Assembly (NCBI GenBank): GCA_964553875.1
Contig: CAZKNH010000003.1
Coordinates: forward strand, 5,850-69,849
Direction of reading: 5' to 3'
DNA from: an uncultured Gammaproteobacteria bacterium
GTDB lineage: Bacteria; Pseudomonadota; Gammaproteobacteria; Steroidobacterales; Rariloculaceae
DNA: 64,000 nucleotides
In this document: positions 3,726-41,874 of the stretch, piece by piece
Layout: every line of letters starts with the position of its first letter
How positions within the stretch are numbered: position 1 is the first letter of the stretch
Made by a program: the position numbers and the translations under genes
The notes under the pieces: generated by a model
Seen by the model: only the letters and a program-made list of their open reading frames with translations
Told to the model about the DNA's origin: nothing
Databases searched by the model: none

Positions 3726-4445
3726 TCAGAACGCGTACTCGAGCGCGATCGTCGTGAAGCGGTCCGTGCTCTCCGAATCGGCCGGAACCGCGCTGTTCAT
3801 TTTGATCCGGTAGGACAGAACGAGCGCGACGTTGCCGACGATCCGGGCCCGCAGCGACGAGCGGGCCTCGGTCATCGTGTTCGTCGAGCCGCTCTCGATC
3901 ACGAGCGCCTGCTCGAACTCGGTCGTGTCCGACAGCGTCCACAGATAATCGACCGAGCCTCGGACGATCGCGTCGTCCTCTTCGGTCCCGTCCCGGAGCT
4001 CCGACTGCCGCGCACCGAAGCCGATGCCGGTGTCGAGCGTATGCCGGTCGCGGTCCACGATGCGGCGGCCGTAGCCGATGGTCTCGGAAACCTGCTCCGC
4101 GTAGCCCGAGAAGCGGTCCCGCTTGTAGTCGAGCGTGGTGAACAGAAAGTTGTGCTCGCCGAACGAGCGGCGTGCCTCGTATTTGAAGAGGTACGCCTCG
4201 GCCGTGGTTTCCTCGTCGGTCGACGCGCCGACCCCGGACAGGTCGATACCGTGCCGCCAGCCGGCGCGGCCGTAGCGAAGCGACAGCGAGGCGTTCGCGC
4301 TCGTGCTGTCCGTGTTGCCGCTCGTCGCGATATAGCCGAGCGCCGCCTTACCGGAGAACGACGGATCGGAGCCTCCGGCATCCTGGGCGGCGGCGTTGAC
4401 GGAGAGCAGCGCGAGCAGCGATACGACAGCGGGATACGTTCTCAC
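3726..4445 (-). CDS. DUF481 (YdiY-like) outer-membrane beta-barrel protein
   Basis: Signal peptide [27 protein letters not shown] motif, alternating beta-strand pattern and C-terminal ...IALEYAF. The start was moved to the in-frame GTG at 4445 that begins the signal peptide (track start 4559). Confidence 0.7.
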
Positions 4446-4573
4446 GAGGGCGCCTCGGCGGCTCGGTAGGGGCCGCAACGGACGCGGATGATACACGGGC
4501 CTCGCGGTCGTCGCACCGACCTCCGTCGTCCCTATAATGCGGTCGTCATTCGGGGACACACTCGGCTCGACTC

Positions 4574-5212
4574 ATGTCACGACGTCTCGGCTGGTCCGAC
4601 GGCCTCATCGCTGCAGTCGACGAAACGCTGCGCACGCTCGGCGGCGCAGTCGCGGCCTCGCGCCCGAGCCCCGGCGACGGGCTCGACGAGCCGCGGCTGT
4701 CGACGTGGGACCGGCGCACCAGCGGCGCGCTGATGCGCGTCAATCACGCCGGCGAGATCGCGGCGCAGGCACTTTACGTCGGGCAGGCCATCGGGGCACG
4801 CAGGCCCGAGACGCGCGCGCATCTGCTCGACGCGGCGCGCGAGGAGCGCGATCACCTCGACTGGTGCCGCACGCGGCTCGACGAGCTCGGAGCGAGACCG
4901 AGCCTGCTCGGGCCGTTCTGGTATGCGGGCAGCTTCTGCATCGGCCTCGCGGCCGGCGCGCTCGGCGATGCCGTGAGCCTCGGTTTCGTCTCCGAGACGG
5001 AGCGGCAGGTCGAGGCGCATCTCAAGGATCACCTCGAGCGATTGCCGCCCCGCGACGTGAAGAGCCGCGCCATTCTCGAGCGAATGGCCGAGGACGAGGT
5101 TCATCACGGGACGACGGCCCGGCTCGCAGGCGGCATCCCGCTGCCCGCGCCCGTTCGCAGTCTGATGTCGATCGGCGGCGAGATTCTGCGCCGCACGGCG
5201 TACATCTTGTGA
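4574..5212 (+). CDS. coq7: Demethoxyubiquinone hydroxylase (Coq7 family di-iron monooxygenase)
   Basis: RVNHAGEIAAQALYVGQ...EERDHLDWC...SETERQVEAHL...MAEDEVHHG are the di-iron carboxylate motifs of bacterial Coq7. Confidence 0.85.
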   Translation: MSRRLGWSDGLIAAVDETLRTLGGAVAASRPSPGDGLDEPRLSTWDRRTSGALMRVNHAGEIAAQALYVGQAIGARRPETRAHLLDAAREERDHLDWCRTRLDELGARPSLLGPFWYAGSFCIGLAAGALGDAVSLGFVSETERQVEAHLKDHLERLPPRDVKSRAILERMAEDEVHHGTTARLAGGIPLPAPVRSLMSIGGEILRRTAYIL

Positions 5213-5223
5213 CGCACATCACA
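5208..5223. promoter_or_regulatory. CRP/Clp-type binding site (perfect TGTGA-N6-TCACA)
   Basis: TGTGACGCACATCACA overlaps the coq7 stop codon, about 110 nt upstream of the crp-family gene. Confidence 0.55.
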
Positions 5224-5230
5224 AGCACCG

Positions 5231-5246
5231 AGTGATGTACATCACA
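5231..5246. promoter_or_regulatory. Second CRP/Clp-type binding site
   Basis: AGTGATGTACATCACA has one mismatch to TGTGA-N6-TCACA. Its centre is 23 bp from the first site. Confidence 0.5.
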
Positions 5247-5324
5247 AGAACTGATTTCAAACTTGCGAACTTACGTTGATTTGATTAAATACGGGATTAA
5301 GTCAAACCCCGGAGTCCCGTTGAA

Positions 5325-6005
5325 ATGGAAGAAGCACTTCGTCCGTTGAGTGATGTCCCTGCGATCAATCGTTTCTTGAGCTACTGCCGGGTCCGCACGG
5401 TTCCGGCGAAGACGGTCATGATCCACGCGGGCGACCTGCCCGATGTGCTCTACTACATCGTCGACGGCTCCGTCGAAGTGATGATCGAGGACGAGGACGG
5501 CAACGAGATGGTCCTCGCGTACCTGAACAAGGGCCAGTTCTTCGGCGAGATGGGCCTTTTCTACGAGCAGCCGCAACGCAGCGCTTGGGTCAGAACCCGC
5601 ACGGAAAGCGAAATCGCGGAGATGACGTATCCGCGCTTCCGGCAGCTCGCCTCGGAGAGCCCGGGGCTGATCTTCGAGGTCGCGACCCAGCTCGCCACCC
5701 GTCTCGATCGCACGAACCGCAAGCTCGGCGACCTGGCATTCGTCGACGTCACCGGCCGCGTCGCGCACGCGATCATGGATCTTTGCCGCGAGCCGGACGC
5801 GATGACCCATCCGGAAGGCATGCAGATCAAGGTCTCGCGGCAGGAGCTGTCGCGTCTCGTCGGCTGCTCGCGCGAGATGGCCGGGCGCGTGCTGAAGGTG
5901 CTCGAGGACCAGGGCCTCGTGCGCGCGAACGGCAAGACGATCGTCGTGTTCAACGCGCGGCGCGAGCCGCCGAAGGCGCGCCGCCCGCAACTGCAGCGCG
6001 TCTGA
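5325..6005 (+). CDS. crp: cAMP-receptor-protein family global regulator (CRP/Vfr/Clp-like)
   Basis: It has a cyclic-nucleotide-binding domain (GQFFGEMGLF...RSAWVRTRTESEIAEM). The C-terminal HTH RQELSRLVGCSREMAGRVLKVLEDQGLV is near-identical in pattern to CRP/Clp. Confidence 0.9.
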   Translation: MEEALRPLSDVPAINRFLSYCRVRTVPAKTVMIHAGDLPDVLYYIVDGSVEVMIEDEDGNEMVLAYLNKGQFFGEMGLFYEQPQRSAWVRTRTESEIAEMTYPRFRQLASESPGLIFEVATQLATRLDRTNRKLGDLAFVDVTGRVAHAIMDLCREPDAMTHPEGMQIKVSRQELSRLVGCSREMAGRVLKVLEDQGLVRANGKTIVVFNARREPPKARRPQLQRV

Positions 6006-9866: not shown

Positions 9867-10960
9867 GACTCGCCAAGGTCGGCATCGTCGGCGGAGGTCA
9901 GCTCGGCCGCATGCTCGCGCTCGCGGGCTATCCGCTCGGGATCGAATGCGTGCTGCTCGACCCGAGCCCCGATTCGCCGGGCGGACAGGTCGCACGCGCG
10001 AAGACCGCCGCGCTCGACGATCACGGAGCGATCGACGCGCTCGCGCGGGAGGTCGACGTCGTGACCGTCGAGATCGAGAACGTTCCGGCCGCCGCGCTCG
10101 CGGCGGCCGCGCGGCACGCGCCGGTCTTTCCGCCGCCAGCCGCGATCGAGGCGGCACAGGACCGTCTCGTCGAGAAACAGCTGTTCGGCTCGCTCGGGAT
10201 TCCGACCGCCGCCTACGTTCCGGTCGAGCGTCCTCCGGATCTCGAGCGGGCGGCCGCCGAGCTCGGCCTGCCGATCGTGCTGAAGGCGCGGCGGCTCGGC
10301 TACGACGGCAGGGGGCAGCGCGTCGTCCGGCGCGCCGAGGATCTCGCGAGCGCATGGAGGGAGCTCGGCGAGGCGCCGTCGGTCGCCGAGGCGTGGGTGG
10401 AGTTCGAACGCGAGCTGTCCCTCGTGGCGGTCCGCGGCGCGGACGGCGAGCGGGCGTACTACCCGCTCGCCGAGAACGTGCACCGCGACGGCATCCTGCA
10501 CACGTCCGTCGCGCCGTTCGAGGATCGAGCCCTGCAAAAGCTCGCCGAAGGCTGGCTCGATGCGCTGTTCGACCGCCTCGACTACCGAGGCGTGCTCACC
10601 GTCGAGTTCTTTCACGCCGGCGGTTCGTTGCTCGCCAACGAGATGGCGCCGCGCGTGCACAACTCGGGGCACTGGACGATCGAGGGTGCGGTAACGAGTC
10701 AGTTCGAGAATCACCTGCGCGCCGTGCTCGGCTGGCCGCTCGGCGAGACGGCCGCGCGCGGCCACGCGGCGATGCTGAACCTGCTCGGACGGCTTCCGTC
10801 CGTCGAGCAGCTGCTCCGCGTGACGGGTGCCCGGGTACACATCTATGGCAAAGCACCGCGGCCCGCGCGCAAAATCGGTCACGTGACGCTCGTCGATTCG
10901 AACCGCGAGCGGCTGCTTCAGCGCCTCGAAGCGTTGCAGTCCGTGATACAGGTCGCGTAG
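9863..10960 (+). CDS. purK: N5-carboxyaminoimidazole ribonucleotide synthase
   Basis: [18 protein letters not shown]...ATP-grasp...[16 protein letters not shown]...[18 protein letters not shown]. The ATG at 9863 overlaps the purE stop (ATGA). This is the C-terminal 365 aa of track ORF 8315..10960. Confidence 0.9.
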
Positions 10961-11093
10961 TCGGGCGATACCGGTCGAATCCCGTAGGGGTTTGTATTAG
11001 GCTTCGGCCGTTGGCGATCGGAAGGCGCCTTCGGCCGCCGGCGATCGGATAGCGTCGGATCGCTCCTCCGCTGACGCCGTTATCGACGAGGAC

Positions 11094-12605
11094 GTGGCGG
11101 ATTTCAGGACGATGTACTGCGAGCTGTTCAAACTCAAGGAACCGCCTTTTCGGCTCACGCCGGATCCGCAATTCCTGTTCGCGAGCAAGCAGCACGCACG
11201 CGCCAAGGCGTACATGGAGTCCACGATCTGGCTCGCGGACGGATTCGTCGTCATCACGGGCGAAATCGGTTCCGGCAAGACGACGCTGATCGAGAGCTTC
11301 CTGAGCGAGCTTCCTAAGGACGTCGTCCTCGCGCACGTGAACCAGACGCAGCTTTCGCCGGTCGAGTTCCTGCAGGCGCTGCTCGTCGAGTTCGGCTTTC
11401 AGCCGTTCCGCATGCGCAAGGTCGAGCTGATGACGATGCTGCGCGATTACATGATCGAGCAGTATGCAGCCGGCAAGAAGATTCTGCTGGTCGTCGACGA
11501 AGCACAGAATCTCCCGCGCGCCGTGCTCGAGGAGATCCGCATGCTGTCGGGCATCGAGGCGCAGAAGGAGAAGCTGCTCAGGATCATCCTCGTCGGCCAG
11601 CCCGAGCTCTCGGCGAAGCTCGATTCGCCGCGGCTCGAGCAGCTCACGCAACGAGTCCGGCTACGATTCCACCTCACGCCGCTCTCCAAGCGGGAGACGC
11701 GCGAATACGTGCTGCATCGGCTCGAAGTCGCAGGCGCCGAGGGGCGGCGCATCTTCACCGACGACGCGCTCGACGTCGTGTTCCGCTACTCGGGCGGCGT
11801 TCCGCGGCTGACGAACATCATCTGCGACACGGCGATGCTCTGCGCCTTCGCCGAGGAAACCCCGATCGTCGATGCACGACTCGTGAAGGCCGCGGCGGAG
11901 GAGCTGCAGTGGGTCGAGTACAGCGTGCGCGCGCGCGACCGGATCTCGAGCACCGGCAAATACTCGGCCGCGATTCCTGCCTCGTTCGCGTCGGTCGACC
12001 TGATGCTGCACGACGAGCTCGTCGCGCACGTGACTCTGACGCCGGGCCGCCTGATCATCGGCCGCACATCGGACAACGATCTGCAAATCCGCAGCAAGTT
12101 CATCTCCCGTCATCATGCGCAGATCATCACGGATCGTCATCAGACGGTCATCGAGGACTTGAACAGCACGAACGGGCTCTATATCGGCTCGCGGCGCGTG
12201 AAGCGTCACGTGCTGCGTGACGGCGACGTCGTGCAACTCGGCGAGCACAGGCTCGTCTATCGTGAACGTCGCTCTGGCGTCGAGGGAGCCGATCGACTGT
12301 CGGACACGGGCTCGTTCCGCGTCGAAAGCGAAGACGAGTGGCTCGAAGACGACGCGGCCTATGCCGACGAAGCCGACGACGCGCCGGCCCCCGACGTTAC
12401 CGACGATGTCGCGGACAGGGACGCCGAGCTTGCGGCGACGGAGCCGCACGACGCAGCATCGGGGAACGGCGCGGCGCCTGAAGAGCGCTCCGACGGCGAG
12501 CATTCGGATGCTCGGGCCGTCGACGATCGTGAACCCGAGCCGATCGACCGGGCGGGCCAGGATCTGCCGCCGCACGGCGAGGCCGTAACGGCCGTCGAGC
12601 GCTGA
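11094..12605 (+). CDS. ExeA/GspA/MshM-like AAA ATPase fused to an FHA domain with an acidic C-terminal tail
   Basis: The N-terminal part reads FKLKEPPFRLTPDPQFLF, Walker A GEIGSGKT (aa 56-63), Walker B LLVVDEAQNL, and LRIILVGQPEL...GGVPRLTNIICD. This is the ExeA-type AAA_22 pattern. Residues ~303-389 carry FHA hallmarks (IIGR, SRHH, NSTNG, GD.V.LG). The last ~110 aa are Asp/Glu-rich. Confidence 0.75.
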   Translation: MADFRTMYCELFKLKEPPFRLTPDPQFLFASKQHARAKAYMESTIWLADGFVVITGEIGSGKTTLIESFLSELPKDVVLAHVNQTQLSPVEFLQALLVEFGFQPFRMRKVELMTMLRDYMIEQYAAGKKILLVVDEAQNLPRAVLEEIRMLSGIEAQKEKLLRIILVGQPELSAKLDSPRLEQLTQRVRLRFHLTPLSKRETREYVLHRLEVAGAEGRRIFTDDALDVVFRYSGGVPRLTNIICDTAMLCAFAEETPIVDARLVKAAAEELQWVEYSVRARDRISSTGKYSAAIPASFASVDLMLHDELVAHVTLTPGRLIIGRTSDNDLQIRSKFISRHHAQIITDRHQTVIEDLNSTNGLYIGSRRVKRHVLRDGDVVQLGEHRLVYRERRSGVEGADRLSDTGSFRVESEDEWLEDDAAYADEADDAPAPDVTDDVADRDAELAATEPHDAASGNGAAPEERSDGEHSDARAVDDREPEPIDRAGQDLPPHGEAVTAVER

Positions 12606-12628
12606 CGCTCGGAAGGCTTTTCGCCGCT

Positions 12629-12856
12629 TCAGTTCCGGTCGTCGAACGCTTCCCGGCTGCGGCTCGTTCGATACCCCCAGCGCCTCAACAGCACGACGAG
12701 CCCTCCCGTCAGGCACGACAGGCCGGCGAGCGTGAGGATCAACGACATCGGACCTTTGCCGATGTAAAAGCCTGCCGCAAGCCCTGCCGCGCCGATGCCC
12801 ATGTACGTGAACGGCAAGGCCTCGTACACGCGCTTGTCGAGCCAGACGCCTCTCAT
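12629..12856 (-). CDS. Small two-TM membrane protein (75 aa), hypothetical
   Basis: MRGVWLDKRVYEALPFTYMGIGAAGLAAGFYIGKGPMSLILTLAGLSCLTGGLVVLLRRW has two hydrophobic helices. The ATG overlaps the stop of the upstream small ORF (ATGA). It is the C-terminal part of track ORF 12629..13243. Confidence 0.45.
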   Translation of the reverse strand: MRGVWLDKRVYEALPFTYMGIGAAGLAAGFYIGKGPMSLILTLAGLSCLTGGLVVLLRRWGYRTSRSREAFDDRN

Positions 12857-13125
12857 CGGTCGCCCCCGTGCCGTCGGCCGCGCTGCGGCCGATCGTCGTG
12901 AACGTCTCCCGGCCGGACGCGGGCCGCGCGTGCACGACCGGTGAGCGCTCGCAGCTTGTCGTGTGCCTCGAGCATGTGCCTGAGCAGCGAAGGCTCCCAC
13001 GAATCGATCGAGAGCCGCCTCACCTCGTCCTTCGACAGGCTTCTGAGCACGGTGTCGTCGAGCCCGTCGCCGCGGGAAGCGGCTTTCGCCGCAGGCTTCG
13101 TAAGCGTCCTTCGCTCCTTCGCCAT
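12853..13125 (-). CDS. Hypothetical protein (90 aa)
   Basis: AGGAAG lies 6 nt upstream of the ATG. Third-codon positions are about 85% G/C, like the neighbouring real genes. I recognise no family. Confidence 0.4.
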   Translation of the reverse strand: MAKERRTLTKPAAKAASRGDGLDDTVLRSLSKDEVRRLSIDSWEPSLLRHMLEAHDKLRALTGRARAARVRPGDVHDDRPQRGRRHGGDR

Positions 13126-13154
13126 CGTCCGCTTCCTGCCGACAGCCGCTTCGG

Positions 13155-13349
13155 CTAAGCGCCACCGCGCTTCGCGCCGAAAAGACCGAGCAGTCTCGAC
13201 AACAGCGAGTGCTCGAGGCCGTCGACCGCGAGGTCGGCCTCACTCCGCAGCATCGCGAGCAGGCGTTCCTCGCCGGGCTCGAGAATCGGCCGAACGAAGT
13301 CGGCCTCGGTCAGCGTATCGTCGAATTCCATGACACGCGTTCGAGTCAT
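13155..13349 (-). CDS. Hypothetical acidic protein (64 aa)
   Basis: The ORF is on the same strand as tldD and immediately downstream of it, with GC-rich third positions. I recognise no family, and the RBS is weak. Confidence 0.3.
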   Translation of the reverse strand: MTRTRVMEFDDTLTEADFVRPILEPGEERLLAMLRSEADLAVDGLEHSLLSRLLGLFGAKRGGA

Positions 13350-13458
13350 CGTCGCACCGACGATACCCGCGAGGGGGAAGCCTCGCAGTGACTCGAATCA
13401 CAGGAAACATAGCCGCCGCTAGACATAACGAGCGGCGGCGACGAGCGCGCGGTGCGCG

Positions 13459-14949
13459 TCAGGCTTCCGTGCCCCCGACGGTCAACGAATCGATCTTCAG
13501 GGTCGGCTGGCCGACGCCGACCGGCACGGACTGCCCGTCCTTGCCGCAGACGCCGATTCCAGGATCGAGCTCGAGGTCGTTGCCGACCATCGACACCCGC
13601 GTCAGCACCTCGGGACCGCTGCCGATCAGCATTGCGCCCTTGATCGGCCGAGTCTTCTTGCCCTTCTCGATCAGGTACGCCTCGCTCGCCGAGAACACGA
13701 ACTTGCCGGACGTGATATCGACCTGACCGCCGCCGAAGTTCGGTGCATAGATCCCGCGCTCGACGGACGCGATGATCTCGTCGGGGTCGTGATTGCCGGC
13801 GAGCATGTACGTGTTCGTCATGCGCGGCATCGGCGCATAGGCATACGACTCGCGGCGCCCGTTGCCCGTCGGCGCCTGCTTCATCAACCGCGCGTTCAGC
13901 TTGTCCTGCATGTAGCCGACGAGCACACCCTTCTCGATCAGCGTCGTGCACGAAGTCGGCGTGCCCTCGTCGTCGATGCTCAACGAGCCGCGTCGGCCGG
14001 GCAGCGTGCCGTCGTCGACGACCGTGCAGGCTTCCGTCGCGACCCGCTCGCCGATCCGGCCGCTGAACGCGGACGTGCGCTTCCGGTTGAAATCCCCTTC
14101 GAGCCCGTGGCCGATCGCTTCGTGCAGCAGCACGCCGGGCCAGCCCGGGCCGAGCACGACCGGCATGTTGCCGGCAGGCGCCTGCACCGCTTCGAGGTTC
14201 ACGTTCGCCTGACGGACGGCCTCGCGCGCGAGCCGCTCCGCGAGGTTGTTGTCGACGATGAGGCTGTAGTCCCCGCGCCCGCCGCCGCCGGCATAGCCCT
14301 GCTCGCGACGGCCGTTCTGCTCGACGATCACCGAGACGTTCAACCGGACGAGCGGGCGGACGTCGGCCGCGAGCACACCGTCCGACGTGCGGATCAGCAC
14401 GAGCTCGTAGACGCCGGCGAGACTGCCGACGACCTGGATCACGCGCGGGTCGAGCTTGCGGACATAGCGATCGAGATGCGCGAGCAGCTCGACCTTACGC
14501 TTGTCGTCGAGGGTCGGCAGCGGATCGACTGCCGGATAGAGCCCGCGCCCGCGGACCGGCGATGCGACCTTCACGCGGCCTTCACCGCCGCTCTTCGCGA
14601 TGCCGCGCGCCGCCTCCGCGGCGTCGAGCAGCGATTCGGCATCGATCTGGTCCGCATACGCGAAGCCGGTCTTCTCGCCGACGATCGCGCGCACGCCGAC
14701 GCCCTGGTCGATGCTGAACACGCCTTCCTTGACCTTGCCGTCCTCGACGGACCAGCTTTCGTAGCGCGTGCTCTGGAAGTAGAGATCGGCGTAATCGAGC
14801 TTACGCGCCATGAGCTCGCTCATCGCGCGGTCGAGCACGGCGAGGTCGAGCCCGGCGGGCTCGAGCAGCCCCCGCTGCACGATCGTGAGCGGATCCGCGT
14901 CGGGCGCGGCGACGAGCGGTGCGGTCAATTCTCGAAGCTGGATCATCAC
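13459..14949 (-). CDS. tldD: Metalloprotease TldD
   Basis: 496 aa. DYADLYFQ...VGVRAI...[19 protein letters not shown] (HExxxH)...[13 protein letters not shown]. Confidence 0.95.
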
Positions 14950-22487: not shown

Positions 22488-22862
22488 TCACGCGAGCCCG
22501 GCGCTTTCGTCGCGGGCCGAGATGTCCCACAGATTCTCGATGTTGTAGAACTCGCGGACGCGCGGCAGCATCACGTGAACGATCGCATCCGCGAGGTCGA
22601 CGAGCACCCACTCGCCGGCCTCCTGCCCCTCCACACCGAGCGGCTCGATGCCGGCCTCCTCGCAACGCTCGAGCAGGGCGTCGGCGATCGCGCGCACGTG
22701 CCGGTCCGAGCGGCCGCTCGCGATGATCATGTGGTCCGTCACGGTCGTGAGGTGCCTGACGTCCAGGTCCGTGACGCGCTCGGCCTTCATGTCGTCGAGC
22801 GTGTCGAGGATCAACCGGACGAGCCTGTCATCCCTCTCCGTCTTCCGTTTCCTTTTCGGCAT
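22488..22862 (-). CDS. rsfS: Ribosome silencing factor RsfS (iojap)
   Basis: LDDMKAERVTDLDV...TDHMIIASGRSDRHVRAIAD...GVEGQEAGEWVLVDLADAIVHVM...YNIENLW. The annotated start overlaps the nadD 3' end by 35 nt, so the exact start is uncertain. Confidence 0.88.
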   Translation of the reverse strand: MPKRKRKTERDDRLVRLILDTLDDMKAERVTDLDVRHLTTVTDHMIIASGRSDRHVRAIADALLERCEEAGIEPLGVEGQEAGEWVLVDLADAIVHVMLPRVREFYNIENLWDISARDESAGLA

Positions 22863-23517
22863 AGCACTCCGTATCGAAGATGATGCGTCTCACCGCATCG
22901 GGGACCAGGTAGCGCGGGTCTCTGCCCGCACGAATCGCGGCCCGCAGGCCGCTCGCGGAGATGTCGAGCTGCGTCACGGGCTCGACGTGGATCCGTCCCG
23001 TGCGCGCGGCCGCGAGATCCCCCGCATCCGTCGTCCGGCGCTCGCGCACGAGCCGGCCGAGCTCGCCGTCGTCCGGCAGCCGCGCACCCGGCCGCTCCGC
23101 GACGACGACGTGCGCGAGCTCGAGAACGTCTTGCCAACGGTGCCACCCAGGCAGGCCCGCGAACGCGTCCATGCCGAGCAGCAGGCAAAGCGTCGCGTCC
23201 GGGAAGTCGAGACGGAGGCTTTCGAGCGTGTCGACGGTGTACGACGGGCCGGAGCGGTCGAGCTCGCGCCGGTCGACGACGAACCGCGGCTCGTCCGCCA
23301 CCGCGGCCTCGAGCATCGCAAGACGCAGGCCCGCCGGCGTCCGCGGGGCCGCACGATGCGGCGGACGCGCGGCAGGGATGAACCGGACCTCGCTCAAGCC
23401 CGTTCGCTCGAGCAGCTCGAGCGCGATCCGCAGGTGACCGAAGTGGACCGGATCGAACGTGCCGCCGAACACTCCGACGAGGCCGCTCGCGACCCGGTTT
23501 CGATTCTCGTGGGTCAC
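22828..23517 (-). CDS. nadD: Nicotinate-nucleotide adenylyltransferase
   Basis: VGVFGGTFDPVHFGHL...SYTVDTL...ISASGLR. Only the last 229 codons of track ORF 22828..24174 are NadD-like. The GTG at 23517 overlaps the holA stop (GTGA). Confidence 0.85.
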   Translation of the reverse strand: MTHENRNRVASGLVGVFGGTFDPVHFGHLRIALELLERTGLSEVRFIPAARPPHRAAPRTPAGLRLAMLEAAVADEPRFVVDRRELDRSGPSYTVDTLESLRLDFPDATLCLLLGMDAFAGLPGWHRWQDVLELAHVVVAERPGARLPDDGELGRLVRERRTTDAGDLAAARTGRIHVEPVTQLDISASGLRAAIRAGRDPRYLVPDAVRRIIFDTECYAEKETEDGEG

Positions 23518-24548
23518 GCGGCGCGCGGACGTGGGACGCGGTCGGGACGGAGCATGCCGAGCACGAGCCGGATCACGGCGTCCCACGGGGGGAGACCCGG
23601 CGCGCCCTTCACGACGGCGTCGAGCTCGACGGCCTCGCGGAGCAGCGCCGCGAGGCGCTCCCCGTCGTAGCGCCTGAGCGCGCGCTCGAGCAGCGCGCGA
23701 CGCTTCGGCCAGACGCGATGGCGTGCGAAGACGCCGTCGAGCCGCTGCCCGCTCGTCGCGGCGAAATTCAGGGCCGTCAGCAAGGCGAGCTCCCGTCCAA
23801 GCGCCCAGGATACCAGAACCGGTTCTACGCCCTCCGCGCGGAGCCCGTAGAGCACGCGGATCGCACGCGGCGCGTCGCCCGCGAGCACCGCGTCGGTCAG
23901 CCGGAACACGTCGAAGCGGGCGCTGTCCGCGACGGACTCGAGCACTTCGGCCTCGTCGACGGTGCCGCCCCGCGCGAGGAGCGCAAGTTTCAGGAGCTCC
24001 TGATCCGCCGCAAGCAGATGACCCTCGACGCGGTCGGCGAGGAGCTCCGCGGCGGCCGGCGTCAGCTGCACGCGGTAGCGCGCCGCGCGCTCGCGAATCC
24101 ACTGCGGGAGCTCCGCGCGCTCGATCGGACGGATCTCGACGACGACGCCGGCGTCGTCGAGCGCCTTGACCCATTGCGAGCTCGCCGCGGCGGAATCGAG
24201 CCGTGCGGCGATCGCGACGATCAAAAGCCGATCGGGATCCGGCCGCGCCGCAAGCTCGCGGAGCACGCGTGCGCCGGCATCGCCCGGGCGCGGCGTCGGC
24301 AGTCGGAGCTCGAGGATCCGGCGCGGCGAGAATAGCGACAGGTTGTCTGCACCGGTCAGCAGCTCGTCCCAGTGGAAGCTCCTGTCCGTCACGTGGAGCT
24401 CGCGCGTCTCGAAGCCGTCGCGGCGCGCCGCAGCGCGGATCGCGTCGAGCGCATCCGCGACGAGGAGCGGCTCATCGCCGGCCACGAGATAGACCGGCGC
24501 AAGCCGGCCCTCGAGATGACGCGGGAGCGAGCGAAGCTGGACCTTCAA
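23514..24548 (-). CDS. holA: DNA polymerase III delta subunit
   Basis: APVYLVAGDEPLL...LFSPRRILELRLP...ARFDVFRLTDAVLAGD...GVEPVLVSWALGRELALL is collinear with E. coli HolA. The start was tentatively placed at TTG 24548 (LKVQLRSL...). The track start at 24677 would overlap the upstream gene by ~100 nt. Confidence 0.8.
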   Translation of the reverse strand: MKVQLRSLPRHLEGRLAPVYLVAGDEPLLVADALDAIRAAARRDGFETRELHVTDRSFHWDELLTGADNLSLFSPRRILELRLPTPRPGDAGARVLRELAARPDPDRLLIVAIAARLDSAAASSQWVKALDDAGVVVEIRPIERAELPQWIRERAARYRVQLTPAAAELLADRVEGHLLAADQELLKLALLARGGTVDEAEVLESVADSARFDVFRLTDAVLAGDAPRAIRVLYGLRAEGVEPVLVSWALGRELALLTALNFAATSGQRLDGVFARHRVWPKRRALLERALRRYDGERLAALLREAVELDAVVKGAPGLPPWDAVIRLVLGMLRPDRVPRPRAA

Positions 24549-24574
24549 ATCGGAATCACCGGCGCGGGTACGCG

Positions 24575-24838
24575 CTACTCCGAAAGCTGCGACAGCTCGA
24601 TGCCCTCCTCCTCGAGGAGCACCGGGATGCCGTCGCGAACCGGATAGGCGAGCTTGCCATCGCGCGTCATCAGCCACTGCGGTGCGGGCTCGGTCACGGG
24701 ATGACCGCCGCGGTTACGGAGCTTGCGCGCCTCGATCGACGCGTTCACGCGCTCGGTGCGGTTCGCCGGCATCACTTGCAGCGGCAGCCGCGTGACCGGG
24801 CAGCAAATGATGTCGAGCAACGCGGGATCAAAGCTCAC
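24575..24838 (-). CDS. Trm112/YcaR (UPF0434) family small protein
   Basis: [15 protein letters not shown]...[23 protein letters not shown]. It is the last 87 codons of track ORF 24575..25657. The GTG at 24838 overlaps the yidD stop (GTGA). Confidence 0.7.
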
Positions 24839-31431: not shown

Positions 31432-33276
31432 ATGCACGGCTCTCGCGTCCGCACCGGACTCGTCGCCGCCGCCGCGGCCCTCGCCGCTTTCTGCCCCGCC
31501 GCCTTTCCGCAGCCGCGCGCGCACCTCCCGCCGGCCGAGCGCGTCGTCGTCGTCGCGGACGTGCACGGCGCGTATGCCGAGCTCGCGGCGCTCCTGCGCG
31601 CGACGGGGCTCGTCGACGACGGGCTCCGCTGGAGCGGCGGCGCCGCCCGTCTCGTGAGCCTCGGCGACCTGGTCGACCGAGGCGCCGAGTCGCGCCGCGT
31701 GCTCGATCTCCTGATGCGCCTCGAGGCGGACGCAGCACGAAGCGGCGGCGGCGTCCATGTTGTGCTCGGCAACCACGAGGTCATGAACCTCGTCGGCGAC
31801 CTAAGGTACGTCGCGCCGGGCGAGCTCGCCGCGTTCGCCGCGGAGGAGTCCGATGCGGACCGCGCGGCCGCGCTCGAGCGCTTCCGCGCGCGCATCGACT
31901 CGGGCGAACAGGACACCGTCGCCGCGTTCGAGCGGCTCTATCCGCGAGGCTACTTTGCGCATCGGCGTGCGTTCGCGCCGGACGGCCGGTACGGCCGGTG
32001 GCTGCTGTCGCTGCCGTCGCTCGTCGTCGTCGGCGACACGGCCTTCGTGCACGGCGGATTGTCGGAGCCGATCATCGCCGAGCTCGCGGGAGAGCGGCCC
32101 GCGGACACCCTGAACCGCCGAGTCGAAGCGCGCCTCCGCCGCTATCTCGAGCTTCGTGCGCGGCTCGCCGACGCAGGGCTCCTGCCCGCCGACGATGCGC
32201 GTCGCGACCTCGAGCTCGTCGAAGCGGCGGCCGCGCGCGGAGCGGCGAGCACGGGCAGTCCCGACGACGGTTCGATCGCAGACCTGCTCGAAGCCTTCCT
32301 CGAGGAGGCCGCGTCGCCCGAGCTCGGGCTCGACGGCCCGCACTGGTATCGCGGCGCGATCTATTGCCCGCCGCTGCTCGAGCGGCCGGTGCTCGAGCTC
32401 GCGCTCGAGCGCCTCGGCGCGGCGCGAATCGTCGTCGGTCATACACCGACGCCGGACCGCCGCGCGCGGGCGCTGCACGACGGACGCCTGATCACCCTCG
32501 ACACCGGAATGCTCGTCGAAGCCTATTCGGGACGCCCCGCCGCGCTCGTCATCGAGAACGACACGACGTACGTGCAATACATCGATCCCGACGAGCGGCG
32601 ACCGCTCGAAACCGATGTAATTGAAGCCTATGGCCTCACCGAGGCGGAGCTCCTCGATACGCTCCGCGACGGGGACATCGTGCCGAGCACGAGCACGGAC
32701 GAGGTCATCGACGTCGTCGTCCGTCACGACGGCAAGACGATCGACGCGCGTCACTTCCGGGACGCGAAAACGGCGTCGCGCGAGCTCGCGGCGCATCGGC
32801 TCGATCGCCTGCTCGGGCTCGGCCTCGTGCCGCCGACCGTCGCCCGCGACGGCCGCGCGCTTCAGCTTCGCTATCCCGACGCTGTCTCGGAGGCCGACCG
32901 GATCGAGCGCGGCATCCCGCTCGGCGAGTGGTGCGCGCTCGATCCGCAGGTCGCGATGCTGCGAGCGTTCGATGCGCTGATCGCGAACCCCGCACGGCGG
33001 GCCGACACCGTGCTGTTTCGCGTCGAGCAGCCGCTCGTGAAATCGATCGGCCACGAGCGCGCCTTCGGCACCGGACGCCGGCTCGGCAGCGACGCGCCCG
33101 ACGAGCTGCCCGCTCCGCTCGTCGCCGCGCTCGCGACGCTCGACACGGGAACCCTCGCGGCGGAGCTCGGCGACTGGCTCGACCCGCGGCAGATCCGCTC
33201 GTTCGTCGCCCGCCGCGACGTGCTGCTCGACCGCGCCCGAGAGCGAGCCGGGAGCGCGCCCGACGCTCGCCGCTGA
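31432..33276 (+). CDS. Exported PPP-type metallophosphoesterase with a C-terminal kinase-like (probably degenerate) domain
   Basis: The signal-like N-terminus is MHGSRVRTGLVAAAAALAAFCPAAF. The phosphoesterase motifs are VVVADVHG, SLGDLVDRG, VLGNHE, FVHGG and VVGHTP. The C-terminal ~220 aa (RELAAHRLDRLLGLGLVPPTV...FDALIANPARRADTVLF...GHERAFG) parallel the core of the next gene. Confidence 0.75.
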   Translation: MHGSRVRTGLVAAAAALAAFCPAAFPQPRAHLPPAERVVVVADVHGAYAELAALLRATGLVDDGLRWSGGAARLVSLGDLVDRGAESRRVLDLLMRLEADAARSGGGVHVVLGNHEVMNLVGDLRYVAPGELAAFAAEESDADRAAALERFRARIDSGEQDTVAAFERLYPRGYFAHRRAFAPDGRYGRWLLSLPSLVVVGDTAFVHGGLSEPIIAELAGERPADTLNRRVEARLRRYLELRARLADAGLLPADDARRDLELVEAAAARGAASTGSPDDGSIADLLEAFLEEAASPELGLDGPHWYRGAIYCPPLLERPVLELALERLGAARIVVGHTPTPDRRARALHDGRLITLDTGMLVEAYSGRPAALVIENDTTYVQYIDPDERRPLETDVIEAYGLTEAELLDTLRDGDIVPSTSTDEVIDVVVRHDGKTIDARHFRDAKTASRELAAHRLDRLLGLGLVPPTVARDGRALQLRYPDAVSEADRIERGIPLGEWCALDPQVAMLRAFDALIANPARRADTVLFRVEQPLVKSIGHERAFGTGRRLGSDAPDELPAPLVAALATLDTGTLAAELGDWLDPRQIRSFVARRDVLLDRARERAGSAPDARR

Positions 33277-33292
33277 GACGGGCGGGCGCATC

Positions 33293-33320
33293 GCGACACT
33301 CTTGCTCTCGAGAGTGTCGC
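33293..33320 (+). other. Intercistronic hairpin (10-bp perfect stem)
   Basis: The stem is GCGACACTCT, the loop TGCTCTCG, and the return arm AGAGTGTCGC. It lies between the phosphoesterase stop and the GGAGGGG RBS of the next gene. Confidence 0.5.
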
Positions 33321-33339
33321 CATTTCGGAGGGGAACGCC

Positions 33340-34641
33340 ATGAGCCCCGAGTCGCCCGCAGAGCTCACGCGCCGACCGAGACGTCGGCGTCTCTCGGCCG
33401 CCGCGCTCGTCCTCGTCCTCGCGCACGCCGGCGCCGCCGACGGAGAAGGAGACGCCGTGCCCGAGCTTTTCGCGGATCGTGCACCGCTCGCATTCGAGCT
33501 CGTGCTCGATCGCCGCGCATTGTGCCGCCCGCGGCCGAGCAGGCCATGCGCATCGACGCCCGCGTCACTAACTTATCGCACCGCGGCGGGGCCGGCACAC
33601 CGGCTCGACGTCCTCGTGCGTGCAAGGGGCGGCTGGCGTGACGCCCACTGCGACGTTCCGCCGCTTCTCATCGAGATCGCGGCGCCGCCGGAAAGCGGCC
33701 CCTTCTCGGGGCAGACCCTGCTGCCGCTCACGACTCATTGCCGAACGGCGTCGTCGCGTTACGAGCAATACGTGCTCAAGGAGTATCTCGCGTACCGCCT
33801 CTACGAGCTTTTCACGCACAAGAGCTTACGCGTGCGCCTCGCGCGCATCACGTATCGGGACGTCGGTAAGCGGGGCCGGGCCGTCGAGCGCTTCGGTTTC
33901 GTCGTCGAGCACTTCGATCACCTCGCCGGCCGGCATGGCACGACGCTCCAGAACGCCGGCACGCTCCGGCTGTCCGACGCCGACGCATTCGAGCTCGCGA
34001 CCCTCGAGCTCTTTCAGTACCTGCTCGGCAATACGGACTGGTCGATCGTCGCCGGGCACAACGTCGTTCGCATGCGCGACGGTCAAGGCGTGGTGAGCGC
34101 GGTGCCGTACGACTTCGACTTCGCAGGGCTCGTCGGCGCGCCCTACGCATCGCCGCCGCCGAACCTTCCTCTGCGCAGTGTCCGCGAGCGGCTCTTCCGC
34201 GGCTTCTGTCATTCGCGGCTCGACTGGGAGCGGCTGTTCACCCGATTCGTCGAGCAGCGTGCCGGGGTGCTCGCGCTGATCGACGACGTGCCCGGGCTCG
34301 AGCGCGCGCAGCGCGACGACGTGCGCGACTATGTGCTCGACTTCTTCGATGTCATCGCGTCTCCGGAGAAGCGACGGCGAGAGATCGTCGGCGCGTGCCG
34401 TCCGATCGCCGAAACGTCATCCGCACAACCGCGTCCCGCGGAAGCCGCGCGCGGCCGGTCCGAGCGACGCTTCGCCGTGAACGCCGCAGCTTGCGTGCGG
34501 CACGATGTCGAGGCATATATGGGGCACGCTCCTAGCACGACACCTCCGCCGGCCCGAATACGACGGAGGGTCGCCCTCGAAGCGCTTGCGGCCGCGCCTG
34601 CGGCAATCCTCGTGCCGCATCCGACGACCGTCCGGTCTTGA
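33340..34641 (+). CDS. Exported hypothetical protein with HipA/PI3-4-kinase-like motifs
   Basis: The Arg-rich signal-like N-terminus is RRPRRRRLSAAALVLVLAHAGAADG, with GGAGGGG as RBS. Conserved-looking blocks are EYLAYRLYELF, LFQYLLGNTDWSIVAGHNVV and VPYDFDFAGLVGAPYASP. I cannot name the family. Confidence 0.6.
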   Translation: MSPESPAELTRRPRRRRLSAAALVLVLAHAGAADGEGDAVPELFADRAPLAFELVLDRRALCRPRPSRPCASTPASLTYRTAAGPAHRLDVLVRARGGWRDAHCDVPPLLIEIAAPPESGPFSGQTLLPLTTHCRTASSRYEQYVLKEYLAYRLYELFTHKSLRVRLARITYRDVGKRGRAVERFGFVVEHFDHLAGRHGTTLQNAGTLRLSDADAFELATLELFQYLLGNTDWSIVAGHNVVRMRDGQGVVSAVPYDFDFAGLVGAPYASPPPNLPLRSVRERLFRGFCHSRLDWERLFTRFVEQRAGVLALIDDVPGLERAQRDDVRDYVLDFFDVIASPEKRRREIVGACRPIAETSSAQPRPAEAARGRSERRFAVNAAACVRHDVEAYMGHAPSTTPPPARIRRRVALEALAAAPAAILVPHPTTVRS

Positions 34642-34676
34642 CCGTCATTTCCGTGCGTATCCGCGCGAGGTCGAGC

Positions 34677-37600
34677 ATGGGAGGCGAGGCGGCGACGGTG
34701 CGATTCATCGGCCCGAAGGGCGCCGGATGGATCGCTCTATGCCTGTCCGCGCCGTGCTGGGCTCAGGTCGATGCTGTCGATGACGTAACGGAGCTTCGCG
34801 CGGGCAGCGTGTCGAGCGCTCGGCAGGACGCGAGGCAGCGCGTCGACTACGCGTTCGAGGCGACGGCGGGCCGAACCTACCTGATCGAGCTCGATCAACA
34901 GGGACTCGACTTCGTACTGAGCATCGAGGATCCGCGTGGCGACGCACGCACGTACGGCTCGCCGTTGCTGCGCGACGAACGCGAGATCGTGCTGCTCGAG
35001 GATGCGCAGTCGGGGATCTATCGCGTCTCGGTCTTTTCCGAGGAGTTCTCGGCGGCTTCCGGCCGGCACGCGATCCGACTCTCCGCTCCGACACCCGGCG
35101 AAGATACGCGCGTGTGGGCCGCGATGAGCGCGGGCGCCGCCGCCTATCGACGCGGCGGCGAGCAAGGCTGGGCGGATGCGATCTCTGCGTACGAGACCGC
35201 GGCCGGGCTTGCGAGAGAGAGCGGTAGACACCGCGAGGTCGCGCACGCCCTCTTCGGCATCGCGGCGATCGAATACTGGTATCGCTACGCATGGACGCGC
35301 GCGGCGGAGCTCGCGAAGGAAGCGGCGCAACTCTATGCCGACCTCGACCAGCCTCTCCTCGAAGCGAGCGCGTTGCATCTCCGCGCGGCCGCGCTGATCG
35401 AGGAGGCGACTACCGTGCCGCGAACGTCGAGCGCCGGTCTCGCACCCCGGGCCCGGGCGCTGTTCGACGAAGCGCTCGACCTCTTCGACCGCGTGCGCCG
35501 CACTTTCGAGCGGCGCGGCCGATCGTACGAGGCGGGCCTCGCGATCAACAACGTCGGTCTTACGTACTACTACATGGGAGAGTACGCCGCCGCGCGCGCG
35601 TCGTGGGACGAGGCGGCTCGGCTCTTCCGGCGCCTCGGCGAGTGGGACAAAGAATTGACGGCCCTCGGCAATCAAGCCGTGATCGCTGCCGAGCAGGGCC
35701 GCCTCGCCGATGCGATCGCGATCTTCGAACGCAGCCTCGATCTCCTTTCGGCCGATCACCCGGACCGGGCGCTCACGCTCGACAATCTCGCCGCGACGCA
35801 CTACGCGCGCGGCGACTTCGACGACGCGCTGCGCACCTTCTCCGCGGCGCTCGACCTGCACAGGCGGAACGACGACGGCAAGGGCGAGGCGCACGCTTTG
35901 CGCGGGATCGGCTCGACCTACTTCGCACTGGGCCACCTCGAGCTCGCGACAGCGTTCCTCGAGCGAGCCTTGCCGCTCGCCCGGGAGAGCGGCGATGGAC
36001 GCAACGAGAAGAGCATCCGCGGCCTCTTGGGCAACGTCGCGTTCCTCGAAGGCGAGCACGAGGAGGCGCTCAATCATCATCGCGCGGCGCTCGCGCTCGC
36101 GACGGCGCCGACCGACGCTGCCGTCGTGCAGGTGCTGCTCGCGAAAGACCTCGTCGCGCTCGGTCGCCACGCCGCGGCAGGTGCGCTCGCCGCGGAGGCG
36201 CGGGCGACGGCAGAGGCCGCCGGCGCGAAGCTTCTCGTCGCCGATGCGCTTCAGCAGAGCGGACAGGCGCGGCTCGGGCTCGGCCGGACCTTGGAGGCGG
36301 CCGCCGACTTCCGACGCGCGCTCGCGGTCTATCGCGAGCTCGGTGTGTCGACGAAGGAGTCCGAGGCTCTGCACGGCATCGCGGAGAGCGCCGCGGCCGA
36401 CGGCCGGCTCGACGACGCCGTTCGCTACGGCAACGCGTCGCTCGTGGCGCTCGAAGCGGAACGCATTCGGATCGCGGCTCCGGAGCTGCGCGCGCACTAC
36501 GCTGCGATCCGCCGCGGCTACTACGAGGCGCAGATCGAGAGGCTGATGACCCTCCATCGTGCGGCGCGCGGCGGGGAAACGGATGCGCATCTCCTCGCCG
36601 CGTTCGAGACGAGCGAACGATCGCGTGCGCGTGTGCTGCTCGATCTGATGCACGAGACCGCGGACGACGACACGGCGACGGCGGACGATCGCTCGGCTCG
36701 CGAACGCGCGCGCCTGATCGAACGGCTCGCCGGGCTTCGCCACCGCCGCGATTCCTTGCTCGCCGCGCCTCCGACGGCGCAGACGGAAACCGAAGTCGCG
36801 GAGGCCGTCGCCGAGATGACGGTCGTCGACAACGAGCTCAAGGTGCTCGAGACGGCGCTTCGCTCGAAAGACGAGCGCTCGGCGCTCGCGCCCGCGAGTC
36901 CGCTGTCGCTCGACGAGATCCAGGCCGGGCTCGACGAACATTCGTTTCTCGTGCAGTACGCGCTCGGCGAGCGGCGGAGCCACGCGTGGATCGTCACGAA
37001 GTCGGCCGTGCACGCGGTCGAGCTCGCGCCGCGAGAGGCGCTCGAGTCGGCGGCGCGACGCGCCCATGATGCGCTCGCGCGCTACGACGCGAGCGCATCC
37101 AGAACGGAGCAGCTCGAAGAGCGCCTCGACTCGCTCGCGGAAGCGGTGCTCGCGCCGGTCCGTCCGTATCTAGGCGACGGGGGACGCATCGTCTTCTCGG
37201 CCGACGGCGCATTGCAGTACGTGCCGTTCGGCGTGCTGCGCGATACCGCGAGCGACGGTCGTCGGCTGATCGAGCAGTACGAGATCGCGGCCGTGCCGTC
37301 GGTGTCTGCCGTGCTGTCGTCGCGTGCCGCAACGCGCCCTGAGATCGCCGCGAACCGCGTCGCCGTGATCGCGGACCCCGTGTTCGAGCCCGACGATGCA
37401 AGGCTCGCAGGCATCCGCACGAGCCGCGAGCCGTCGCCGCGCAACCCGCCCGCGGAGCTCGAGCCCCGCTCCGCGCTCCTCGCCGAGCCCCTCGCACGGC
37501 TGCCGTTCGCAGGACGCGAAGCATCGGCGATCGCCGCCCTCGTCCCTCCTGACGACCGCCTCGTGCTCACCGGCGTCGCTGCGAGCCGCGACGCGGTATT

Positions 37601-38069: not shown

Positions 38070-38073
38070 CCGC

Positions 38074-38098
38074 GCCGTGACGCGAATCGCGTTACGGC
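38074..38098 (+). other. Hairpin just after the CHAT gene
   Basis: The stem is GCCGTGACGCG, the loop AAT, and the return arm CGCGTTACGGC (11-bp stem with one G-T pair). No T-run follows, so it is probably an intercistronic stabiliser or attenuator rather than a full terminator. Confidence 0.4.
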
Positions 38099-38142
38099 GT
38101 CGCGATCACTCGACGCCGATACCGATAACAAGGAGAGCCACG

Positions 38143-38670
38143 ATGAGATTCAGGCACTATCGCGCGATGCTCGCCGCATCGGTTCTTGCGGCTCCGATCT
38201 GCGACGTGCCCGCACAGCAGCCCGTGCAGGCACCGATCGAGGAGCTCGAGGAGGCGATCGCGCAAGAAGCGTTGCCGCTCGGCCCGCAGCCGCGCCCGGC
38301 TCATACGGTGCTGCGCGTGGAGGCTGCCGGCGCGCACCTCGAAGTCGGGCAACGGTTCAGCTTCATAGGACCGCTCGAGCCGAACGGGGACTACATCGTG
38401 ATTCCGCACGGCGCTCTGCAGAACGCGCGCACCCGTTGGATATCCGGGCCCTACATCGCGCGGCGAGTCCCGAGCACGCGAAGCCTCTGGCGCCTGATGA
38501 ACGTGAGAGTGCGCGATTCGTACGAGCATCCGACGGAGAGCGTTCATGCGATCACGATGAACATCCTGGAGTCGACCGACGACGGCATCGTCCGGCTCGA
38601 GCTCTCCACGGAAAGGCATCGAGGAAGCCTCGGCGTGCATGGCGGTCACGCCCACCTGACGTCTTATTGA
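38143..38670 (+). CDS. Small exported hypothetical protein (175 aa)
   Basis: A strong RBS (AAGGAGA) lies 6 nt upstream of ATG 38143. The signal peptide is MRFRHYRAMLAASVLAAPICDVPAQQ. I recognise no family. Confidence 0.6.
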   Translation: MRFRHYRAMLAASVLAAPICDVPAQQPVQAPIEELEEAIAQEALPLGPQPRPAHTVLRVEAAGAHLEVGQRFSFIGPLEPNGDYIVIPHGALQNARTRWISGPYIARRVPSTRSLWRLMNVRVRDSYEHPTESVHAITMNILESTDDGIVRLELSTERHRGSLGVHGGHAHLTSY

Positions 38671-38734
38671 TCGGTTCGAGGGTCTTTGCGCGGCGGACAC
38701 GTGGGACGTGCTCGCCGCCGCCGGGAGAAGGCTC

Positions 38735-41865: not shown

Positions 41866-41874
41866 GTGCGCCGC

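Follow-up and report, generated by a model that had tools for sequence, protein, structure and literature searches.

ExeA has a single transmembrane segment and a periplasmic peptidoglycan-binding domain, and together with ExeB it assembles the ExeD secretin (PMC4098917). GarA turns itself off when its FHA domain binds the phosphothreonine of an ETTS motif located in an unstructured part of the protein (PMC5448819), and in Rv1747 the phosphothreonines of a disordered linker lead to intra- and intermolecular FHA binding and to clustering (PMC8339232). Here we describe a gene of an uncultured gammaproteobacterium (Steroidobacterales; Rariloculaceae) that encodes an AAA_22 ATPase fused to an FHA domain. 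The gene lies on the forward strand of a 64,000-nucleotide stretch of contig CAZKNH010000003.1, which we refer to as the window, and we call its product the AAA-FHA protein. It is an ExeA/TIGR03015-type ATPase re-equipped with a predicted phosphothreonine reader, and it represents a common, conserved and uncharacterised family, not a new kind of system. What is new here is a T-G-x-[F/Y] motif in the disordered linker, conserved among the close relatives of the protein.

The list of open reading frames (ORFs) of the window includes 11,094..12,605 (+), which encodes 503 amino acids (aa). In the public record, the gene call for this same protein (P0001, 497 aa) begins six codons downstream, at MYCELF, as do all homologues. 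Thus, the true coding sequence is likely 11,112..12,605 (+; 497 aa), with an alternative upstream GTG start at 11,094 that gives the longer form. Because the public start is at 11,112, an exact-sequence look-up of the 503-aa version found no record. Residue numbers given here count from the 11,112 start, except the ranges of Pfam and TIGR03015 matches, which refer to the 503-aa ORF; all features of the protein are on the forward strand.

From N- to C-terminus, four parts make up the protein: an AAA_22/ExeA-like ATPase, a linker that is disordered, a canonical FHA domain and a 109-aa tail rich in acidic residues. An AlphaFold2 model computed with 35 divergent family members as input has a mean predicted local distance difference test (pLDDT) score of 92 and consists of two folded domains and a disordered stretch at residues 278-289. 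No transmembrane-like segment was found (maximum 19-residue Kyte-Doolittle hydropathy 1.11), and the protein is most likely a stand-alone, soluble, cytoplasmic signalling ATPase. An initial annotation, made from the letters of the window, had proposed an AAA ATPase joined to an FHA domain and an acidic tail. This architecture holds, with Pfam AAA_22 and FHA both above their cutoffs, and all of the motifs that it quoted are present (FKLKEPPFRLTPDPQFLF, GEIGSGKT, VVDEAQNL, and the GR, SRHH and NG residues of the FHA domain).

The ATPase module spans residues 1-268 (11,112..11,915) and is composed of an alpha/beta core and a helical lid. It was delimited using Pfam AAA_22 (residues 49-175, E 8e-26, 91 bits versus a cutoff of 27), TIGR03015 (over 266 residues), the AlphaFold2 model (pLDDT >90) and Foldseek. 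We graded conservation in an alignment of the 35 divergent members, which share 34-59% identity. In the N-terminal signature F-x-L-x-x-x-P-F-x-L-x-P-D-x-x-F-L-F (11,127..11,180), which is common to TIGR03015 and ExeA-like ATPases, P12 and F13 are invariant and Y2, F6 and D18 nearly so. The Walker A motif GEIGSGKT (11,259..11,282) has four invariant residues (G50, G53, G55 and K56), and D129, E130 and A131 of the Walker B motif VVDEAQNL (11,490..11,513) are nearly invariant. The GGVPR of the lid (11,793..11,807) includes an invariant G229 and nearly invariant P231 and R232, the last of which is a candidate sensor-2 arginine by analogy with Cdc6/Orc1. Given that Walker A, Walker B and the lid arginine are conserved, the module probably has NTPase activity.

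The closest solved structures of the ATPase module, based on PDB profile searches and Foldseek, are DNA-bound MuB filaments, Orc1/Cdc6 and TnsC, with 14-20% identity. MuB is the top PDB sequence-profile match of the AAA part (E 5e-14), and Cdc6 and TnsC were also matched; in Foldseek comparisons with these proteins the E-values are ~1e-11 and the TM-scores reach 0.74-0.77 on the target. No structure of an ExeA-type ATPase is among the structural matches. As modelled, the module belongs structurally to the MuB/Orc1/Cdc6/TnsC 'switch/loader' branch of the AAA+ proteins. Switch/loader AAA+ proteins act by ATP-dependent self-assembly on a target and not by substrate threading. Although the AAA+ fold of MuB, TnsC and Orc1-Cdc6 is the top structural match, those proteins are DNA-binding and act with partners in transposition or replication, whereas Pfam identifies no winged-helix or other DNA-binding domain in the AAA-FHA protein and its gene context is housekeeping.

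The FHA domain is a beta-sandwich at residues ~293-385 (11,988..12,266) with the GR, SxxH and NG residues that in FHA domains contact the phosphothreonine, and it is supported by Pfam, PDB profile matches, Foldseek and conserved residues. The Pfam match (PF00498; residues 321-383, nucleotides ~12,054-12,242, E 4e-18) scores 65.9 bits versus a cutoff of 20.7. Hence the FHA assignment of the initial annotation is borne out by profile search, well above the gathering threshold. Seven residues (G317, R318, S332, H335, S352, N354 and G355) are invariant or at least 90% conserved among the 35 divergent members, and the AlphaFold2 model has ~11 strands between residues 293 and 385 (pLDDT >90). PDB profile matches include GarA, OdhI, EmbR and Rv1747 at E ~1e-21 (Rv1747 FHA-1 at E 1.6e-20). 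Foldseek matches FhaA, GarA and OdhI at TM-scores of 0.8-0.9 (0.87 to Rv0020c FhaA, 3po8), so that the nearest FHA structures are mycobacterial or corynebacterial. Based on these residues, the domain is canonical and predicted to bind phosphothreonine, and an involvement in phosphothreonine signalling, which had been deduced earlier from the fusion itself, is a reasonable expectation.

The tail (109 aa; 12,276..12,602) is probably disordered, judging by its composition. It contains 35 Asp/Glu (32%) versus 8 Lys/Arg, and the core of the protein is charge-neutral (50 acidic and 53 basic residues). In 110 close relatives the tails have a median length of 53 aa and are 46% acidic, with no sequence conservation.

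Between the two folded domains lies a flexible linker (11,916..11,987) that varies in sequence and length across the family and has a pLDDT below 50 at residues 278-289. Within it is the motif T281-G-K-Y284 (11,952..11,963; translation checked), with the consensus T-G-x-[F/Y], a candidate phospho-acceptor and FHA ligand. Of 114 close relatives, 106 have the motif in their linker, and its local context takes 87 distinct forms; shuffled linkers give a mean of 4.3 and a maximum of 11. Residues before, between and after the fixed positions vary freely. Among one-per-species orthologues it occurs in 14 of 37 (1.4 expected, maximum 7). There it is fixed in the clade of the window, found in three of the five Woeseiaceae (with SG in a fourth) and sporadic in Steroidobacteraceae. 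By analogy with GarA and Rv1747, the motif suggests self-regulation by phosphorylation. A second T-G-x-hydrophobic motif, TGSF (12,306-12,317), is located where the acidic tail begins, ~15 residues past the FHA domain, and the FHA domain of the window's sub-clade is consequently flanked by two candidate phospho-sites. TGSF is confined to the seven nearest relatives, those with long tails, and is not above the shuffle maximum; we set it aside as a curiosity.

Like the AAA-FHA protein, GarA has a threonine motif with an aromatic residue at +3 in a disordered segment beside its FHA domain (T22-S-V-F25, verified in the sequence), and the FHA domains of GarA and OdhI are among the closest solved relatives of the FHA domain described here. 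GarA and OdhI, however, are small single-domain actinobacterial proteins that inhibit tricarboxylic acid cycle enzymes (PMC5448819). In the 497-aa gammaproteobacterial protein, the FHA domain is instead a C-terminal module fused to a 268-residue AAA+ ATPase, and the candidate phospho-site follows the ATPase and precedes the FHA domain by only ~12 residues. Rv1747 is similar in that an NTPase is coupled to FHA domains and to threonines in a disordered linker. The two differ in that Rv1747 is an ABC exporter, carries two FHA domains and has the kinase gene pknF beside it, whereas the AAA-FHA protein is a soluble AAA+ protein that has a single FHA domain and lacks a neighbouring kinase gene.

The best NCBIfam match of the protein is TIGR03015 (XrtA/PEP-CTERM system-associated ATPase). 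The match is end to end (residues 7-272 versus profile positions 1-267 of 269, E 9e-89) and scores 297.5 bits versus a curated cutoff of 324.5. Other AAA-FHA proteins score 200-263 bits, and every one tested falls below the cutoff. FHA-less relatives with ~41% identity reach 392-404 bits and are genuine members of TIGR03015. One of these, from Roseateles, is encoded in a complete exosortase A (XrtA/PEP-CTERM) exopolysaccharide (EPS) operon, with genes for an export protein, a chain-length determinant, a tyrosine autokinase, an outer-membrane protein, the ATPase, FemAB, glycosyltransferases, XrtA and an amidotransferase. A crude neighbour-joining tree groups the exosortase-linked proteins in a single clade and, with one borderline case, places the FHA-fused proteins outside it. 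Based on the scores below the cutoff and on this tree, we place the AAA-FHA family as a sister of TIGR03015 and not as a member. Both share the N-terminal F-x-L-x-x-x-P-F signature, Walker A, the DEAQ Walker B and the lid. In contrast, the C-terminal ~100 residues of genuine members are replaced in AAA-FHA proteins by the linker, the FHA domain and the acidic tail, and the AAA-FHA gene is not in an exosortase/EPS operon as the Roseateles gene is. We found no experimentally defined function for TIGR03015 in the literature searched (Haft 2006 is silent on the ATPase), and nothing relevant was found there on PEP-CTERM/exosortase with ATPase or GspA, or on Steroidobacter or Woeseia with exosortase.

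An N-terminal cytoplasmic AAA_22-type ATPase is common to ExeA/GspA and the AAA-FHA protein. Unlike ExeA, the AAA-FHA protein lacks a transmembrane segment and a peptidoglycan-binding domain (no PG_binding Pfam match), and exeB, gspB and type II secretion system genes are not nearby; in E. coli, for contrast, gspAB is next to gspC-O. BLASTP of the protein against E. coli K-12 GspA, the GspA/ExeA sequence compared, gave no significant similarity (best E 0.57). The E. coli gene (3930-5399 of locus L094) itself has no NCBIfam match at E ≤ 1e-10. Thus, the label 'ExeA/GspA-type' of the initial annotation is correct at the broad AAA_22 level and does not extend to ExeA/GspA proper, the nearest curated family being TIGR03015. 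Public labels of the homologues are generic ('AAA family ATPase', 'general secretion pathway protein A', 'ExeA' or 'FHA domain-containing protein'). Since E. coli GspA has neither an NCBIfam match nor similarity to the AAA-FHA protein, proteins annotated as GspA are heterogeneous, and the name 'general secretion pathway protein A', where assigned automatically to AAA-FHA homologues, is unreliable.

The AAA-FHA architecture is common, with thousands of homologues. A word-indexed search returned at least 8000 candidates, the best 120 of which all have AAA_22 plus FHA and are 64-83% identical across these two parts. When representatives clustered at 50% identity were searched exhaustively, 10,007 proteins were identified at E ≤ 1e-30, and the best 150 of these include ~50 clusters that are collinear over both domains at 35-60% identity. 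This divergence among collinear clusters indicates that the fusion is old and diversified. We also surveyed one genome per species (GTDB) with a profile built from eight sequences. Full-length orthologues with 50-74% identity are found in Steroidobacteraceae, Woeseiaceae and unclassified Gammaproteobacteria, and a member with 37% identity occurs in Thioalkalispiraceae. All named members of more distant subfamilies are Gammaproteobacteria or Pseudomonadota, and the divergent cluster representatives are named as metagenome-assembled genomes (MAGs). The bin MNBD_GAMMA24 carries two AAA-FHA paralogues of different subfamilies, P0334 (418 aa; locus L088) and P0350 (407 aa), from which we conclude that the family has diversified by within-genome duplication. 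No published work on the AAA_22 plus FHA or ExeA plus FHA architecture was found in the literature searched. The initial annotation had allowed that this might turn out to be a common, already characterised family with a known partner system; common it is, and neither a characterisation nor a partner was found in the literature.

In most orthologous loci, including complete chromosomes, tblastn of the window neighbours identified the order purE-purK-[AAA-FHA], followed by opposite-strand genes ending in tldD, CN-hydrolase and yhdP. We conclude from this comparison that Steroidobacterales and Woeseiaceae share the AAA-FHA gene as part of their syntenic core, and that the arrangement is ancestral. 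Because the same gene order recurs, the gene is not an insertion between purK and the tldD-side ORFs, as had been stated; its position is conserved across an order. The base composition of the gene is typical for the window. Rfam has no match in 10,800-13,600, and a promoter/terminator scan round the gene gave nothing above chance. Between purK and the gene there is a tandem 26-nt direct repeat, CTTCGGCCGyyGGCGATCGGAdrGCG (11,002-11,027 and 11,029-11,054). It has no other copy in the window and is confined to contigs of the same species (L001-L004), with no copy in related genomes. The repeat may have arisen by a recent duplication, or it could serve as an operator.

Genes of more distant subfamilies stand alone in unrelated housekeeping contexts, with long upstream intergenic regions, and no recurrent partner gene was found in the eight contexts. 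In a Thioalkalispiraceae MAG, an AAA-FHA paralogue is directly downstream of a bactofilin gene and a 201-aa ORF (L044, 8702-11,221), and in a hydrothermal-vent gammaproteobacterium a paralogue is downstream of VanY, Peptidase_M99 (Csd4-like) and FliB_C (L088, 2313-7488). These neighbours are cell-shape or peptidoglycan-remodelling genes, and each arrangement is a single case.

Three small ORFs on the reverse strand separate the AAA-FHA gene from tldD. The nearest, s75 (12,629..12,856), encodes a 75-aa membrane protein with two transmembrane segments and no Pfam match; it is convergent with the AAA-FHA gene, 23 nucleotides from its stop. The next, s90 (12,853..13,125), is poorly conserved; it is a gene call in L001-L004, and profile search matches same-species contigs only. 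The third, s58 (13,155..13,331), lies downstream of tldD and encodes 58 aa with a C-terminal amphipathic motif and no Pfam match. Using an iterative hidden Markov model, we found s75 in 37 loci, always convergent and directly after the AAA-FHA gene, and s58 in 22 loci. The s75 proteins have the motif MW..RP.YE.LP..Y..G...G..L..G.V..L.RRDYR. A C-terminal amphipathic W-x-P-S-L-L-x-R-L is shared by s90 and s58, and W-x-P-S-L-L was seen by eye also in L005 and L006. In L090, s75 still adjoins the AAA-FHA gene though other genes now part it from tldD, which hints that s75 is tied to AAA-FHA rather than to tldD. The small ORFs may encode partners of the AAA-FHA protein, s75 being a possible membrane partner. 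Two candidate FHA ligands in these small proteins were rejected: in the N-terminal 'DDTxTEAD' of s58, considered as a pTxxD ligand, the +3 position is not conserved among s58 homologues, and in the C-terminal 'YRTSRSR' of s75, considered as a phosphothreonine site, the threonine is not conserved.

A linker threonine with an aromatic residue at +3, beside a canonical FHA domain, parallels GarA and Rv1747. Thus, we propose that the AAA-FHA protein is a phospho-gated AAA+ switch, the best explanation of the whole, to which we give about an even chance. A Hanks-type Ser/Thr kinase encoded elsewhere would phosphorylate T281 of the linker. The FHA domain could then bind phospho-T281 in cis, as a self-inhibition switch like that of GarA and OdhI, or in trans between protomers, as a phospho-driven clustering like that of Rv1747. 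Either capture would gate assembly of the ATPase or binding of a partner, and the acidic tail may be an accessory disordered element. The output would most likely be a step in cell-envelope or exopolysaccharide assembly, to which descent from an exosortase-locus ATPase and the adjacent membrane mini-protein s75 point weakly. A more specific version, which we consider rather doubtful, is that an ExeA/exosortase-type assembly ATPase has turned into a self-regulating phospho-switch that controls envelope or exopolysaccharide assembly, with s75 and possibly s58 as its membrane receptor. Its own FHA domain would read the phosphorylated linker motif, in cis to turn the protein off or in trans to drive its polymerisation.

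Several observations weigh against a phospho-gated switch of this kind. The linker motif is clade-specific, absent in many Steroidobacteraceae orthologues and not fixed in distant subfamilies, and therefore it cannot be the mechanism of the whole family. Only ~12 residues separate T281 from the FHA strand that follows it, a spacing that may be short for a cis interaction, and AlphaFold2 leaves the unphosphorylated linker undocked on the FHA domain. A strict motif scan of the window and of 94 related loci (1.6 Mb), together with Pfam on the window, identified no Hanks-type kinase or PP2C phosphatase, so that the phosphorylation step is without genomic support here. With respect to s75, the gene is convergent and not co-transcribed with AAA-FHA, both s75 and s58 are absent at three orthologous loci (L010, L029 and L041), and conservation of a neighbourhood inside one order cannot separate functional linkage from inherited synteny.

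The first of the competing explanations starts from the distribution of the linker motif. The FHA residues are conserved in all subfamilies and the linker motif is not, as would be expected if the protein were a classical FHA adaptor that recruits the ATPase to a phosphothreonine on another protein. That protein could be a kinase in the membrane, a component that assembles polysaccharide or secretin, or one that acts in cell shape, and the linker motif would then be no FHA ligand but perhaps a site for kinase docking or a protease, or a structural element. Many bacterial FHA proteins bind foreign phospho-partners, the PDB matches include FhaA, EmbR and Rv1747, and the distant paralogues beside bactofilin (L044) or beside VanY and Csd4-like peptidase genes (L088) are consistent with such targets. 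We regard an adaptor as possible, with a probability well below even, since no partner gene recurs across subfamilies and strong selection on the threonine, the glycine and the +3 aromatic in an otherwise freely varying disordered linker is hard to explain unless they form a ligand or modification site. The full-length match to TIGR03015 at 297.5 bits, and the bona fide exosortase-operon ATPases among relatives at 41% identity, would instead fit a relocated ExeA/TIGR03015 orthologue that acts in trans on an XrtA/PEP-CTERM, exopolysaccharide or secretin system elsewhere in the genome. However, every AAA-FHA protein tested scores 200-298 bits, below 324.5, and the FHA-fused proteins fall outside the exosortase-linked clade. 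No exosortase or EPS gene was identified in the scanned window ORFs or in eleven related loci, other orthologous loci having been probed for the window's neighbour genes only. The ExeA/GspA form of this explanation has against it the missing transmembrane segment, peptidoglycan-binding domain and gspB, and the dissimilarity of E. coli GspA. We consider a trans-acting ATPase of this type unlikely.

An action on DNA, like that of MuB, TnsC or Orc1/Cdc6, is raised by the closest solved structures of the ATPase module, some of them DNA-bound, and by tails whose acidity is conserved in composition among close relatives; the tail would be a DNA-mimicking auto-inhibitor and the FHA domain a link to a DNA-damage or cell-cycle phospho-signal. 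This seems very improbable. The module shares only 14-20% identity with these structures and is not accompanied by a winged helix or another DNA-binding domain, far closer sequence relatives are ATPases of envelope/EPS loci, the core is charge-neutral, and there is no transposon, replication or repair context. Finally, P-loop NTPases that carry sensor domains are often found in defence islands, and weak PADLOC matches (best E 9e-6 over 28 residues in the Walker A region) raise the question of an anti-phage defence or other mobile accessory system. These matches are limited to the P-loop, and throughout an order AAA-FHA keeps its core syntenic place between purK and tldD, with window-typical base composition and no mobile-element genes nearby. 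We regard this reading as effectively excluded by the conserved housekeeping synteny and the P-loop-level matches.

The content of the window is essentially housekeeping, apart from one small accessory island (31,432-43,478). All substantial ORFs of the window were Pfam-scanned or annotated via identical or related contigs, except for three that are short or doubtful (22,648-23,670, 23,718-24,335 and 24,372-24,647). Upstream of the AAA-FHA gene are rpiA, rpsI/rplM, COQ7, crp, djlA, purC, pmbA, purE and purK. Other genes include tldD, CN-hydrolase, yhdP, rng, maf, rlmH, rsfS, holA, lptE, leuS, cysS and hisI, as well as lnt, corC, ybeY, phoH, miaB, uvrA, trpS, pepQ, rplQ, rpoA and secY. Among the scanned ORFs we identified no gsp, msh, pil, XrtA/PEP-CTERM or exosortase gene, in line with the initial annotation, which had noted that gsp, msh and PEP-CTERM neighbours were missing. 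It had also noted that no kinase is adjacent, and this agrees with both the Pfam scan, in which none of the scanned ORFs is a kinase, and the Hanks motif scan. The kinase-like genes that it listed at 57,056 and 31,432-34,641 are not kinases by Pfam. The ORFs there are a PEMT/ICMT methyltransferase (56,469-57,056), a 614-aa calcineurin-like metallophosphoesterase with a signal-peptide-like N-terminus, in which Pfam matches the first ~210 aa only (31,432-33,273), a 433-aa ORF with no Pfam match (33,340-34,638), and a 1143-aa TPR plus CHAT (caspase-like) protein (34,638-38,066).

The last three belong to the accessory island, which is located between leuS and lnt and also encodes an S8 subtilase, an MFS/TLC-like transporter and an extracytoplasmic function (ECF) sigma factor (Sigma70_r2). 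The ORF downstream of the sigma factor has no Pfam match and could encode its anti-sigma factor. The island may be a CHAT-protease signalling cluster. Elsewhere in the window, a 94-aa ORF (1193-1477, +) consists almost entirely of Lys/Ala/Thr/Ser repeats (KKKATKKK...) and resembles basic proteins of the histone H1 or AlgP type.

ExeA-like and TIGR03015 ATPases are widespread, and mechanistically they are almost unknown beyond the work on the Aeromonas ExeAB-secretin system. The AAA-FHA protein is a core syntenic gene product of Steroidobacterales/Woeseiales, lineages that are abundant in soils and marine sediments, and as a soluble protein it should be tractable in vitro. With a canonical FHA domain and a candidate phospho-site in one polypeptide, it provides a handle on Ser/Thr phospho-signalling in Gram-negative environmental bacteria. 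If the protein does recognise itself through its linker, such a switch would carry the principle known from GarA and Rv1747 beyond Actinobacteria, into Proteobacteria and AAA+ machines, and could indirectly reveal what exosortase-locus ATPases do.

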